A stretch of 64,000 nt of DNA from Novosphingobium sp. (GCA_020446505.1 JAGREN010000050.1:8423-72422), one strand, 5' to 3'; counted from the stretch's first letter, positions 4,861 to 15,071 are shown. The notes: a model not told the origin generated them from the sequence alone. Translations and numbers: made by a program.

Positions 4861-6525
4861 TTGTCCACCGCCACAAAGCTGCAACGCTCCGCCCCGGCGA
4901 GCGTGGTGCCGCCACACGCCGACATCGTCGTTATCGGCGCCGGGTTCGGCGGCATGTATGCGCATCACCGGTTCCGCCAACTTGGCCTGAGCGTGTTCGG
5001 ATTCGAGCAGGGCACCGACGTTGGCGGCACCTGGTACTGGAACCGCTATCCCGGCGCGCGCTGCGACGTGGAAAGCGTGGACTACACCTACACTTTCTCG
5101 AACGAATTGCTCGAAGAATGGACCTGGAGCGAGCGTTTCTCGACCCAGCCCGAGATCCTCGAATATGCCGAATTCGTTGCCGACCGCTTCGATCTGAGGC
5201 GCGATATCAAGTTCGAGACGAAGATCGTCTCGGCGATTTACGATGAAGCCGCCAACCTCTGGAACGTGCGCACCGACCAGGGCGATGCGATCACCTGCCA
5301 CTATGTCGTCACGACGGTCGGCTGCCTTTCCGTTCCCAAGGATCCCGAATTCGAGGGGCTTGAGAATTTCAAGGGCGAATGGGTGCAGACCGGGGCATGG
5401 CCGAAGGAAGGCGTCGACTGGGCCGGCAAGAACGTGCTGGTTGTCGGCACCGGCTCGTCCGCGATCCAGACCATTCCCGAAGTGGCAAAGACCGCAGGTC
5501 ACCTCACGGTTTTCCAGCGCACCGCCAACTATTCGGTTCCCGCTTATAACGGTCCTCTTCCGGAGCATCGCCAGAAGGAAGTCTTCGCCGACTATCCGGG
5601 CTATCTTCAGATGCTCAAGAAGTCGCGCGGCGGACAGGTGTTCGAACTTCAGACCGACAGCATGGCTGCCGAATTCACCCCGGAGCAACAGCAGGAGCGC
5701 CTCCAGCAGGCATGGGAGCTGGGTCGCTGGAACATCCAGGGCTGTTTCCGCGACATCACCCTCAACGAAGATGCGAACAAGCTCGCGGCCGATTTCGTAC
5801 ACGCCAAGATCCGCGAGACGGTCAAGGATCCGGCGACCGCCGAAAAGCTGATCCCCAGGGGCTATCCGCTGGGTACCAAGCGGCTGTGTCTCGACTCCGA
5901 CTATTACGCCACCTTCAACCGTGAGAACGTGGACCTCGTCGACATCAACGAGGAACCGATCGTTCGGATTACCGAAGGCGGTTTGCAGACGAGCAAGCAG
6001 GAATATCCGGCAGACCTCATCATCTTCGCGATCGGCTTCGATGCCATGACCGGCCCGCTGGTCAATCTCGGCATCGAGGGGCGCGGCGGGCAGTCGCTCA
6101 AGAGCGCCTGGCACGACGGCCCTGAATGCTATCTGGGCATTGCCGCGCCGGGCTTTCCCAACCTGTTCATGGTCAATGGCCCGTCGAGCGTTTCGGTGCT
6201 GTCGAACATGATCCTCACGCTGGAGCATCATGTCGACTGGATTGCCGATTGCATCAGCTACATGCGCGACAATGGCTACGACCGGCTCGAAGCGCGCGAG
6301 GACGCGACGCACGAATGGGCGGCGCATACCGAAATGGTCGCCAATCGCACGCTCTTCCCCAAGGCGAACTCGTGGTACATGGGCGCCAATGTGACGGGCA
6401 AACCGCGCATGTTCATGGCCTACATCGGTGGCTTCGACAATTATGTGGCCCGCTTCGACGCGGTAGCGGCCAAGGGCTTCGAAGGTTTCGACCTGAGCAC
6501 GAGCAAGGTGGAGGAAAACGCGTGA
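4861..6525 (+). CDS. Type I Baeyer-Villiger monooxygenase (CHMO/PAMO/steroid MO-like), copy 1
   Basis: TTG start at 4861 after GGAGA. GAGFGG, GGTWYWNRYPGARCDVES, FKGEWVQTGAWP fingerprint (H to Q), GTGSSA, GTKR catalytic Arg. Confidence 0.94.
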   Translation: MSTATKLQRSAPASVVPPHADIVVIGAGFGGMYAHHRFRQLGLSVFGFEQGTDVGGTWYWNRYPGARCDVESVDYTYTFSNELLEEWTWSERFSTQPEILEYAEFVADRFDLRRDIKFETKIVSAIYDEAANLWNVRTDQGDAITCHYVVTTVGCLSVPKDPEFEGLENFKGEWVQTGAWPKEGVDWAGKNVLVVGTGSSAIQTIPEVAKTAGHLTVFQRTANYSVPAYNGPLPEHRQKEVFADYPGYLQMLKKSRGGQVFELQTDSMAAEFTPEQQQERLQQAWELGRWNIQGCFRDITLNEDANKLAADFVHAKIRETVKDPATAEKLIPRGYPLGTKRLCLDSDYYATFNRENVDLVDINEEPIVRITEGGLQTSKQEYPADLIIFAIGFDAMTGPLVNLGIEGRGGQSLKSAWHDGPECYLGIAAPGFPNLFMVNGPSSVSVLSNMILTLEHHVDWIADCISYMRDNGYDRLEAREDATHEWAAHTEMVANRTLFPKANSWYMGANVTGKPRMFMAYIGGFDNYVARFDAVAAKGFEGFDLSTSKVEENA

Positions 6526-7433
6526 GCGCGATCAGGGAAGGCAACGTCGCCGTCATCACCGGAGCCGCCAGCGGCATCGGCTATGCGCTTGCAGAGGAAG
6601 CCTTGCGGCGCGGCATGAAGGTCGTCGTCTCCGACATACGCGAGGAGGCCCTGGCCGAAGCCGCCGCGAAGCTGACCGGACAGGGTGCGGACGTGCTCGC
6701 CGTTCTGGCTGACGTGACGAGCGAGGAAAACATCATCGCCCTGCGCGACAAGGCGCTCGAAAAGTTCGGCAAGGTCAACCTGCTGATCAACAATGCCGGC
6801 GCCTTCGTCGGCGGCCTCGCCTGGGAAACCAGCGCGCAGCAGATGGACTGGATCGTCGATCTCAACTTCAAGAGCGTCGCGCACGGCATCCGCACCTTCG
6901 TGCCGCAGATGATCGCCCAGGGCGACGAATGCCACGTCATGACCGTGGCATCGGCCGCCGGTCTTTCGGTCTATCCGGGCTATGCGACCTATTCGCCGAC
7001 CAAGCACGCGGCGCTGGCCATCACCGAGGCGCTCTATCTCGATCTCGCCGTCGAGGGCATCGACACCATCGGCGTGACGGTCATCATGCCGGGAATGGTG
7101 CGCACCGACATCATGAACCCCGAAAAGGTCAGCCCGGCGGCGCTGGGTCTGGACCGCGAGGCACGCCACGCCAACGCCACCGTGCGCGGAGTGGAAGCGA
7201 CGATGACCTCTGCGCTGGACGGGGCCATGCCGCCCGAGGAACTGGCGCGCTGCGTGTTCGATGCGGCAGATGCAGGCGAGCTCTACATCCTGCCCAACCA
7301 CGATGCCGAAGGGCCAACTTCGATGGTCAAGGCCATCGCCAACGGCAGAGCTACCGGCACCAATCCGTGGCCTGCTATCATGGGGAGCACCATGACGCGC
7401 ATGTTCGGCAAGACAGAGCCAGCCGACACCTGA
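6522..7433 (+). CDS. Short-chain dehydrogenase/reductase
   Basis: GTG start overlapping the BVMO stop (GTGA). TGAASGIG, NNAG, YSPTK. Confidence 0.92.
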   Translation: MSAIREGNVAVITGAASGIGYALAEEALRRGMKVVVSDIREEALAEAAAKLTGQGADVLAVLADVTSEENIIALRDKALEKFGKVNLLINNAGAFVGGLAWETSAQQMDWIVDLNFKSVAHGIRTFVPQMIAQGDECHVMTVASAAGLSVYPGYATYSPTKHAALAITEALYLDLAVEGIDTIGVTVIMPGMVRTDIMNPEKVSPAALGLDREARHANATVRGVEATMTSALDGAMPPEELARCVFDAADAGELYILPNHDAEGPTSMVKAIANGRATGTNPWPAIMGSTMTRMFGKTEPADT

Positions 7434-7467
7434 ATGAAACGGCGCCGCGTGGCGCGGGAGAGAGAGC

Positions 7468-13832: not shown

Positions 13833-13844
13833 ATAAAGGGTACG

Positions 13845-15071
13845 ATGGCAATGGCGACACTCGCAGAACATCCGGTCCCGAAGGGCATCGACCCGTCGCT
13901 GGTTATCGACTTCGACTACTATTCGGACCGTCGCTACGGTCAGCCCGGCGGCATCCCGCAGGCGATGGCGGACTTGCGCGATGAAGCGCCGGACGCATTC
14001 TGGTCCACGGCCCTCGGTGGCTACTGGGTCGTTCAGGGGCACGAGGCCATCGTCGATGCCGCTGCGCGCACAGACCTGTTCAGCAGCGGCTACATGCGCA
14101 TACCTGCGCGGCCCGACCTGCCCGAACCACCCAAGAACATCCCGCTCCAGCTCGACCCGCCCAACCACGCCGCGTTCCGGGCACCGCTCAACAAGGTGTT
14201 CACGCCGACGCAGATGTATCGCCGGGTCGACCAGATCCGGGCGCTGGCCGTCGAACTGATCGACGCGATTGCTCCGCTGGGCGAGGCGGACTTCTTCGAT
14301 ACGGTCGCCGAGAAGCTGCCGGTGCTGATCTTCATCGACATCATGGGGCTCGATCGCGCGCATTTCCGGCAATACCGCGACATGGCCAAGGCAGCCGCGA
14401 GCGAACCCGATCAGGAGATCAGGCTCAAGGCCGTCCACGACGGCTCCGAACTTCTGGCGGGCGTGATCGCGGATCGTCGGGCCAATCCGCGCGACGATCT
14501 CATCTCCTATCTGCTCGATCTGGAGATCGAGGGCGCGCCGGTCAGCGACGACATGGTGCTCGGCTATTGCAAGCTGCTGTTCTTCGCCGGCCTCGATACC
14601 GTCGCCAATGCCATGTCCTTCATCATGTACTACCTCGCCAGGGATCAGGCGCTGCAGGAGCGGTTGCGGCGCGAGCCAGACAAGATCCCGCACGCGATGG
14701 AGGAGCTGATCCGCCGCCACGCCGTCGCCCCCGTCGTCAGGATCATCGCCAAGGACGAGGTCTGGCGCGGCCTGCCGCTGAGCAAGGGTGACATGGCGCT
14801 GCTCAACTATCCTGCCGCCAACATCGACCCGCGGGTTTTCGATCACCCGGACGAGGTCGATATCGACCGTGAGCGCATCAACCACATCGCTTTCGGCTCC
14901 GGCCCGCACCGCTGCCTCGGCCGCCATCTGGCGCGGATCGAGATGGTCGTGCTGCTGGAAGAAGCCCTGAGCCGCCTGCCGACTTTCCGTCTGGCGGAAG
15001 GCAAGCCGGTGCCCATGCGTGGCGGCGGCGTGCTGACAGTCGAATCTCTTCCGCTGGTCTGGGATCGCTGA
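13845..15071 (+). CDS. Cytochrome P450, tandem copy 3 (alternative start 13851)
   Basis: AGLDT, EELIRR, FGSGPHRCLG. Confidence 0.96.
   Translation: MAMATLAEHPVPKGIDPSLVIDFDYYSDRRYGQPGGIPQAMADLRDEAPDAFWSTALGGYWVVQGHEAIVDAAARTDLFSSGYMRIPARPDLPEPPKNIPLQLDPPNHAAFRAPLNKVFTPTQMYRRVDQIRALAVELIDAIAPLGEADFFDTVAEKLPVLIFIDIMGLDRAHFRQYRDMAKAAASEPDQEIRLKAVHDGSELLAGVIADRRANPRDDLISYLLDLEIEGAPVSDDMVLGYCKLLFFAGLDTVANAMSFIMYYLARDQALQERLRREPDKIPHAMEELIRRHAVAPVVRIIAKDEVWRGLPLSKGDMALLNYPAANIDPRVFDHPDEVDIDRERINHIAFGSGPHRCLGRHLARIEMVVLLEEALSRLPTFRLAEGKPVPMRGGGVLTVESLPLVWDR

Follow-up and report, generated by a model that had tools for sequence, protein, structure and literature searches.

What is the function of a tightly packed block of oxygenase, dehydrogenase and hydrolase genes in the genome of a wastewater sphingomonad? 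The block lies in a 64,000-nucleotide stretch of Novosphingobium sp. DNA (GCA_020446505.1 JAGREN010000050.1:8423-72422; the whole stretch is hereafter called the window, and positions are counted from its first letter). It comprises eight co-oriented open reading frames (ORFs) on the plus strand at 4861-15071, assigned by Pfam and NCBIfam to a Baeyer-Villiger monooxygenase (BVMO), a short-chain dehydrogenase/reductase (SDR), an Amidohydro_3 amidohydrolase (AH1), a carboxylesterase, a zinc-dependent alcohol dehydrogenase (ADH) and three cytochromes P450 (P450a, P450b and P450c). An original prediction, made from the sequence alone, had named the same ORFs and families and had read them as a complete ring-opening entry module with the logic of camphor degradation. 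We find that the order of these genes is conserved among related genomes, and it is hypothesized, with moderate confidence, that they form a conserved catabolic operon, carried by an uncultured sphingomonad of activated sludge, whose enzymes introduce functional groups into a hydrophobic carbon skeleton, probably a terpenoid or alicyclic one, and cleave it.

Gene order and its conservation

All eight ORFs were recovered at the coordinates first given for them, and the overlaps and short gaps described earlier were confirmed, with successive intergenic distances from the BVMO through P450c of -4, 34, -1, 63, 35, 19 and 12 bp. A GGAGAGA-type ribosome-binding site precedes most of the starts. The SDR start lies on the BVMO stop (GTGA), giving a 4-bp overlap that is repeated in all orthologous loci. 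We infer that the genes are co-transcribed. The block does not naturally stop at 15071, where its end had been placed: a PF10118 gene follows after 18 bp and an epoxide hydrolase gene 38 bp after that, and a hairpin scan of the plus strand from 4861 to 17155 found no terminator. The co-oriented run continues to 20481 with a second Amidohydro_3 protein (AH2), an enone-reductase-type medium-chain dehydrogenase/reductase (MDR) and an EthD protein beyond the epoxide hydrolase.

The BVMO was searched against 5.8 billion proteins, which yielded 19 cluster representatives at 72-90% identity; the next matches were at or below 61%. The only organism named within this clade is a Sphingomonadaceae metagenome-assembled genome, and protein searches found no close named (cultured) relative of the BVMO or of P450a. 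Orthologous loci were compared on five metagenomic contigs (L081, L083, L084, L087 and L088). The operon order is present on all five, with the BVMO 72-84% identical and the proteins 67-92% identical. The common layout consists of a minus-strand glyoxalase gene followed by BVMO, SDR, Amidohydro_3 (variable), esterase, ADH, one to three P450s, PF10118 (variable), epoxide hydrolase and Amidohydro_3. Within it, all six genomes share the tightly packed core BVMO-SDR-esterase-ADH-P450 without any change in order, and no gene of the block is better conserved than the zinc-dependent ADH (79-92% identity). Because five independent contigs keep the same order, the arrangement goes beyond chance. The variable elements include the PF10118 gene downstream of the P450s, which is lacking in L084 and L087, and a TetR gene inserted in L084. 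The downstream epoxide hydrolase is present in every orthologous locus that reaches that far.

Parts of the gene set also occur together in more distant clusters. In L085 (source label Sphingorhabdus), a BVMO of 56% identity is followed by Amidohydro_3 (64%), ADH (58%), aldehyde dehydrogenase (ALDH), FMO and SDR genes, with an esterase and AtuA divergent. L089, with a P450 of 44% identity, carries SDR-Amidohydro_3-BVMO beside ALDH-esterase-TauD-P450, and a 53% identical P450 homologue clusters with Amidohydro_3, PF10118, epoxide hydrolase and MDR reductase genes. Because the association recurs in such distant clusters, the gene set appears to be a recurring functional unit. A scan of genome contigs with the BVMO, of which 80 loci were used, was dominated by the generic GTWYWNRY motif and gave, among the matches listed, homologues of 47-54% identity. 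The full operon was found in none of these 80 loci, which is not evidence of its absence from cultured genomes. A hormone-sensitive lipase (HSL) type esterase lies within 350 bp of the BVMO in 23 of the 80 and anywhere in the locus in 27. PLSDB plasmids held no BVMO above 51.5% identity. DNA of the window was found in activated-sludge or wastewater metagenomes of seven studies (Logan contigs).

Enzymes encoded by the block

Among solved structures, the BVMO is closest to phenylacetone monooxygenase (PAMO; 594 bits; 49.4% identity over 528 aa) and steroid monooxygenase (STMO; 562 bits), ahead of the cyclohexanone monooxygenases (CHMOs; 450-454 bits) and OTEMO of the camphor pathway (432 bits). 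In the pairwise alignment with PAMO, the catalytic Arg337/Asp66 pair and the NADPH-binding R217 and K336 (PAMO numbering) are all four kept, as are S441, L443, M446 and W501; substitutions include H173Q, Q152C, I67V, A442V and P440V. Two dinucleotide-binding GxGxx[G/A] motifs, VIGAGFGG and VVGTGSSA, align with those of PAMO, and the BVMO motif [A/G]GxWxxxx[F/Y]P[G/M]xxxD, as defined in PMC10682829, is present as GGTWYWNRYPGARCD. Ring opening, as originally predicted, does not follow from this ranking, because the nearest characterised BVMOs make esters from exocyclic or open-chain ketones. The likeness to PAMO and STMO agrees with a preference for linear ketones, the outcome that the original prediction had itself named as contrary to its claim; an identity of 49% does not fix specificity. 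The active-site bulge at residues 440-446 aligns to PAMO without gaps. It was considered as a discriminator between chain and ring ketones and then dropped, since STMO and OTEMO carry the same bulge (PMC4966971).

The strict BVMO fingerprint FxGxxxHxxxW[P/D] is not matched. The sequence reads FKGEWVQTGAWP, with Gln (residue 176, window 5386-5388) at the position of the His that is H173 in PAMO. Of the top 120 homologues, 105 fit the frame F.G.......W[PD], and these have Gln in 96 cases, Leu in nine and His in none; the non-His fingerprint holds across the clade of at least 56% identity. Among motif-bearing BVMO ORFs in the retrieved loci, His occurs in 60 and another residue in 22 of 82. At about 50% identity, roughly one homologue in four carries a different residue there (F, R, V, Q and others). 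Among the matches listed from the genome-contig scan, the non-His BVMOs mostly adjoin an HSL esterase. As judged from these alignments, the change from His to Gln is a clade-wide natural variant of a full-length PAMO-like protein. A second BVMO of the island (BVMO 2; 43458-45248, minus strand) scores 568 bits against PAMO and 544 bits against STMO, is 45% identical to the first (BVMO 1), and retains the fingerprint His (FKGEFYHTGMWP).

AH1 matches PF07969 over residues 46-559 and carries the HTHYD and GNCG metal motifs in its translation, so that the HxH and Cys ligands of the Amidohydro_3 fold are present. Its best PDB matches, D-aminoacylase and N-acyl-D-glutamate deacylase, cover only the N-terminal 200 aa (E = 4e-33). 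A substrate other than N-acyl-D-amino acids is suggested, because the context contains no amino-acid metabolism genes. In L085, the Amidohydro_3 gene (11677-13431) is translationally coupled to its BVMO gene and encodes a protein 64% identical to AH1, compared with only 56% for the overlapped BVMO. From this greater conservation, the amidohydrolase appears to be a core partner of the BVMO clade. A literature search found no paper on an amidohydrolase-BVMO pairing. The esterase has the HGGG oxyanion hole (FHGGGW) and the GDSAG elbow (GDSAGG) of its family; its match to PF07859 spans the whole profile, it comes closest in the PDB to short-chain esterases of family IV, and its NCBIfam score as a LipP1-family HSL protein is 285 bits, under the cut-off of 350. 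The best PDB matches of the ADH are class I and class III liver-type enzymes.

For each of the three P450s, the solved structure that ranks first is P450cam (about 240 bits); CYP101D1, D2, C1 and J2, which include the Novosphingobium CYP101s, score lower (199-183 bits). Each P450 carries the FGAGxHRCxG Cys-ligand motif, AGLDTVAN (D251/T252) and EELLRR (EXXR). P450a scores 241 bits against P450cam with 35.2% identity over 400 aa, which in this comparison with solved structures lies under the 40% rule for the CYP101 family. The three proteins would work like class I CYP101-type enzymes but fall in another family by the nomenclature rule. The residues that contact camphor in P450cam are changed (F87G, Y96R, T101L, D297V and I395S). 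The camphor-type logic of the original prediction is supported by the gene set, its conserved linkage and P450cam as the nearest solved P450, and not by the camphor contacts.

In a phylogenetic tree, the P450s form three old orthogroups, with 59-69% identity between groups and 80-91% within them. Three copies occur in the window and L083, two in L081, L087 and L088, and one in L084. No locus with at least two P450s lacks orthogroup a, and b or c has been lost in some genomes: b is restricted to the window, L083 and L088, and c to the window, L081, L083 and L087, with the lone P450 of L084 sister to c. Each orthogroup has its own conserved B'-region (substrate recognition site 1), which reads DDGRQRRRLAPL in a, PEDAQMxQSAPL in b and PDLPEPPxNIPL in c. 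In P450a, this region contains a conserved basic RQRRR stretch aligned with the Y96 region of P450cam, and the Arg cluster may bind an anionic group.

Candidate pathways and comparison with known systems

In the route that we favour, class I CYP101-like P450s would first hydroxylate C-H bonds, served by a ferredoxin and reductase encoded elsewhere; the three P450s would be old paralogues with differing substrate-recognition loops. The zinc-dependent ADH and the SDR would turn the alcohols into carbonyls, and the NADPH-dependent BVMO, translationally coupled to the SDR, would insert oxygen beside the ketone. The ester or lactone would then be hydrolysed by the family IV esterase, possibly also by AH1, and the hydroxy or keto acid would pass to the CoA ligases and beta-oxidation-type genes of the window. 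The PF10118 protein, epoxide hydrolase, AH2, enone reductase and EthD protein probably handle double bonds in the same substrate class. Several features suggest a terpenoid or alicyclic substrate: the likeness of the P450s to P450cam, the presence of epoxide hydrolases and an enone reductase, an AtuA gene close by in relatives, and surroundings rich in crotonases. The rest of the window encodes eight enoyl-CoA hydratases, six genes of the acyl-CoA dehydrogenase (ACAD) family, at least five CoA ligases, five CoA-transferases and thiolases, and the island holds alpha/beta ACAD pairs and SnoaL/NTF2 proteins. CamC-like P450s are known to start the degradation of Ambrox, a polycyclic terpenoid, in activated-sludge Sphingomonas (PMC13599519).

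As to the ketone, our preferred version places it exocyclically, on an acetyl or acyl side chain, or beside a substituted ring carbon. Hydrolysis would then release acetate or a secondary alcohol, and an aldehyde dehydrogenase would be unneeded. The lack of an ALDH gene favours such a hydrolysis product, and with it acetyl side chains or alpha-substituted ring ketones. An ester and a lactone as the product of the BVMO are held to be nearly equally probable, the ester very slightly ahead.

Several observations weigh against this route. We infer both the substrate and the order of steps, and the data do not fix that order. No Aldedh domain was detected in any sizeable ORF scanned in the 64-kb window, as had been stated originally, and no Fer2 or ferredoxin-reductase domain was detected in the scanned ORFs; a six-frame motif scan likewise gave no ORF with a ferredoxin-like Cys pattern. 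Linked redox partners in the style of camA/camB are thus lacking within the window. Redox partners unlinked to their P450 are usual in sphingomonads, such as ArR/Arx of Novosphingobium. The stretch was found in no RNA run. The His of the strict BVMO fingerprint is replaced, and AH1 is missing from the L084 operon, which gives it an accessory or redundant role. In view of the conserved RQRRR loop of P450a, one P450 or more may take an acidic or CoA-ester intermediate as substrate, late in the route and not first. By analogy with the Ambrox route, the P450s and ADH could instead make up a separate methyl-to-carboxyl module.

In an unlikely alternative, the substrate would be an acyclic chain that is oxidised subterminally, for example an alkane or an acyclic isoprenoid methyl ketone derived for instance from phytol or geranylacetone. 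A secondary alcohol would be converted to a ketone, then to an acetate or alkyl ester, and finally to an alcohol and an acid, as in acmAB/mekAB-type systems. PAMO-type BVMOs accept open-chain ketones, and a BVMO-esterase pair of Gordonia (acmAB) processes acetone via methyl acetate (PMC6215540). In four relatives, AtuA (acyclic terpene utilisation) stands a few kb upstream of the operon, and in L085 it adjoins the esterase; ALDH genes stand beside the ADH or the esterase in L085 and L089, as expected for a primary-alcohol product. However, the window itself has no ALDH, its P450s are of the CYP101/P450cam type and not of the chain-acting CYP153/AlkB type, and crotonases, alpha/beta ACAD pairs and SnoaL/NTF2 proteins, in which the island is rich, typically go with acids that are cyclic or heavily branched.

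A more speculative extension of the favoured terpenoid route, which we regard as improbable, would assign a new function to the AH1-type amidohydrolase. Found alongside the His-less (FxGxWVQTGxWP) BVMO clade, it would be a new kind of hydrolase for the ester, lactone or formate product. Acting with three subfunctionalised P450cam-like P450s, one of them with an Arg-rich pocket loop that would suit intermediates of an acidic or CoA-bound kind, it would make up a pathway not yet described, by which uncultured activated-sludge sphingomonads degrade terpenoids that are polycyclic or bear an acetyl group, e.g. sewage fragrance ketones or labdanoids.

It is quite doubtful that the block encodes no single linear pathway, and instead serves as a toolbox for several related sewage terpenoids in which the P450s and ADH oxidise a methyl group to a carboxyl while the SDR, BVMO and esterase act at a different position or on a different compound. 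The CamC-like P450s of the Ambrox-degrading Sphingomonas hydroxylate a gem-dimethyl methyl group, and the genes of that pathway are dispersed (PMC13599519). The number of P450s varies from one to three between orthologous operons, AH1 and PF10118 are variably present, and liver-type ADHs, to which this one belongs, generally accept primary alcohols. The invariant, tightly packed core order in six genomes and its repeated association in distant clusters argue instead for one functional unit.

Equally doubtful is the module originally proposed, a complete set for opening simple cycloalkanones of the chn/cpn kind, in which 4-methylcyclohexanone would pass through methylcaprolactone and the hydroxy acid to 3-methyladipate and feed an acd-hbd-mct-mcd operon. 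By family, the SDR, BVMO, GDXG hydrolase and zinc-dependent ADH match ChnA, ChnB, ChnC and ChnD, and the same families recur in chnABCDE and cpnABCDE. Family IV (GDXG) esterases comprise hydrolases of lactones as well as of open-chain esters, and MlhB is a member of the GDXG family. In R. erythropolis DCL14, MlhB acts as a broad monoterpene lactone hydrolase (PMC7794910). The BVMO, however, is clearly nearer PAMO and STMO (594 and 562 bits) than the CHMOs (454 bits), and the window offers no ALDH to carry an omega-hydroxy acid to a diacid; a CHMO/CPMO-type BVMO and an ALDH leading to a diacid, both marks of chn/cpn-type operons, are thus not found. A simple cycloalkane would call neither for three P450cam-like P450s and two epoxide hydrolases nor for an enone reductase. 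Relative to the chn/cpn set, P450s, epoxide hydrolases and amidohydrolases are additions. The 4-methylcyclohexanone example fits poorly, because it needs an ALDH and a CHMO-type enzyme, and with no ferredoxin, ferredoxin reductase or ALDH in the window the module is not complete. A biosynthetic reading was rejected, as the NCBIfam best matches to PtlE, PtlF and pentalenolactone synthase score far under their cut-offs (250 vs 1100 and 117 vs 700), no terpene synthase is present, and the neighbourhood is one of beta-oxidation-type catabolism.

The favoured operon can be compared with several known systems. In the camphor pathway of P. putida (camDCAB, diketocamphane monooxygenases, OTEMO), camD precedes camC, as the zinc-dependent ADH precedes the P450s here, and camphor lactones open spontaneously. 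The two systems share the BVMO step and P450cam as the nearest solved P450, but P450 identity is only 35% with altered contacts, equivalents of camA and camB and a luciferase-type (type II) BVMO are absent, the BVMO is nearer PAMO and STMO than OTEMO, and an esterase is present here. PAMO of Thermobifida fusca and STMO of Rhodococcus rhodochrous are the closest characterised relatives of the BVMO; they differ in having His173 where the window enzyme has Gln, and in their physiological context. The monocyclic monoterpene route of R. erythropolis DCL14 (LimB, the epoxide hydrolase LimA, the dehydrogenase LimC, a monoterpene-ketone BVMO and the lactone hydrolase MlhB) resembles ours in its chemistry: oxygenation is followed by hydrolysis of an epoxide and by dehydrogenation, a type I BVMO acts next, a hydrolase opens its product, and CoA activation leads on to beta-oxidation (PMC7794910). 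The window likewise holds dehydrogenase, BVMO, family IV esterase and epoxide hydrolases together. The enzymes differ: the flavin enzyme LimB contrasts with CYP101-like P450s and PF10118 proteins, and the small LimA fold with alpha/beta EHN-type epoxide hydrolases. Two Amidohydro_3 proteins are added here, and the organism is a sphingomonad. The (-)-Ambrox route (PMC13599519), compared by its description, shares an activated-sludge sphingomonad host, CamC-like entry P450s acting on a terpenoid and a CoA-dependent downstream part, but it lacks a Baeyer-Villiger step, and the genes are reported to be dispersed instead of forming an operon.

Activated-sludge sphingomonads remove terpenoid and fragrance micropollutants, and few of the genes involved are known. 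The locus offers candidate enzymes, namely a His-less PAMO-like BVMO, three P450cam-like P450s with distinct loops and an amidohydrolase partner, which may be of value in biocatalysis and in giving a function to the 'N-acyl-D-amino-acid deacylase family' and PF10118 annotations in lipid and terpenoid clusters. The concept would be a recombination of known steps and not a new principle. Two features stand out: the retention of the amidohydrolase with this BVMO clade, and the change of the fingerprint His to Gln.

Start codon, putative regulatory sites and neighbouring genes

Table 1. Genes and predicted signals in and around the BVMO-P450 block, with window positions and the basis of each assignment
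Feature	Position	Strand	Basis and remarks
TLP1 (thiolase-like protein type 1)	2525..3997	-	Pfam PF18313; divergent from operon
Glyoxalase/VOC-family protein	4324..4728	-	Pfam PF00903; divergent BVMO neighbour
Divergent promoter/operator region (predicted)	4729..4860	.	Alignment with orthologous upstream regions
Type I BVMO, PAMO/STMO-like, NADPH type	4861..6525	+	Pfam Pyr_redox_3/FMO-like; PDB ranking
SDR, 303 aa	6522..7433	+	Pfam adh_short, 154 bits
AH1, Amidohydro_3 metallohydrolase, D-aminoacylase-like, 591 aa	7468..9243	+	Pfam PF07969
Family IV (HSL/GDXG) carboxylesterase	9243..10175	+	Pfam Abhydrolase_3 (PF07859), 210 bits
Zn-dependent medium-chain ADH, 361 aa	10239..11324	+	Pfam ADH_N + ADH_zinc_N
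P450a, CYP101-like class I	11360..12589	+	Best PDB match P450cam
P450b, paralogue	12609..13832	+	65% identical to P450a (alignment)
P450c, paralogue	13845..15071	+	61% identical to P450a, 67% to P450b
PF10118 'predicted metal-dependent hydrolase', second copy	15090..15971	+	Pfam
Alpha/beta epoxide hydrolase with EHN N-terminal domain, second copy	16010..17155	+	PF06441 + PF00561
Promoter-like site	17194..17222	+	TTGATA-17-TATGGT with a TG; overlaps 18-bp site 17196-17213
AH2, second Amidohydro_3 protein	17253..19019	+	Pfam; 39% identical to AH1
Terminator-like hairpin	19039..19070	+	14 pairs, 11 G-C; T-rich tail; first convincing one
NADP-dependent MDR oxidoreductase, enone/alkenal-reductase type	19092..20105	+	PF16884 + PF00107
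EthD-domain protein	20119..20481	+	PF07110

The BVMO starts with TTG at 4861, since its orthologues are called at 554 aa, the PAMO alignment opens at residue 17, and a 5-nt indel in L084 disrupts the frame from the ATG at 4780; on the same three grounds this ATG was ruled out as the start. An alignment with four orthologous upstream regions revealed a near-invariant block around 4800-4817. This 18-bp site reads AATACAGTATGAGCCATT, and similar sites occur at 17196-17213 and, on the minus strand, at 45229-45246. The sites are intergenic, lie upstream of BVMO 1, AH2 and BVMO 2, and have the sequence WATACNGYATGNNNCATT in common. The pattern gave three matches versus 0.35 expected, a weak statistic because the pattern was built from those same sites. 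From its sequence and placement, the repeat may be a shared operator.

Upstream of the operon, the glyoxalase gene directly adjoins the BVMO in every orthologous locus (72-93% identity), TLP1 follows at a greater distance upstream, on the minus strand, in each of the five, and a PF10118/epoxide-hydrolase pair lies beyond TLP1 in four (not L084). The divergent pairing of TLP1 and BVMO is conserved. TLP1 also lies divergently upstream of BVMOs of about 50% identity in eight of the 80 scanned loci (L003, L014, L027, L033, L039, L042, L044 and L045), which come from Nitrobacter, Bradyrhizobium, Tardiphaga and Rhodopseudomonas genomes.

AtuA is found a few kb upstream of the operon in L081 (1865-4094), L084 (2801-4621), L087 (1144-3436) and L088 (1909-4145); it follows an EthD gene in L081, L087 and L088, and in L085 it stands beside the esterase (7030-8811). 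An equivalent in the window would fall just past its left end. In L089, the Amidohydro_3 gene at 1068-2553 was called as three short ORFs, which reflects either a pseudogene or long-read frameshifts. The first PF10118 ORF of the window (1571-2500) encodes 309 aa counted from its first ATG. Four loci have an orthologue, whose called length is 278 aa in three of them and 313 aa in L088. Because most are called at 278 aa, the true start of this ORF may lie about 90 bp further downstream.

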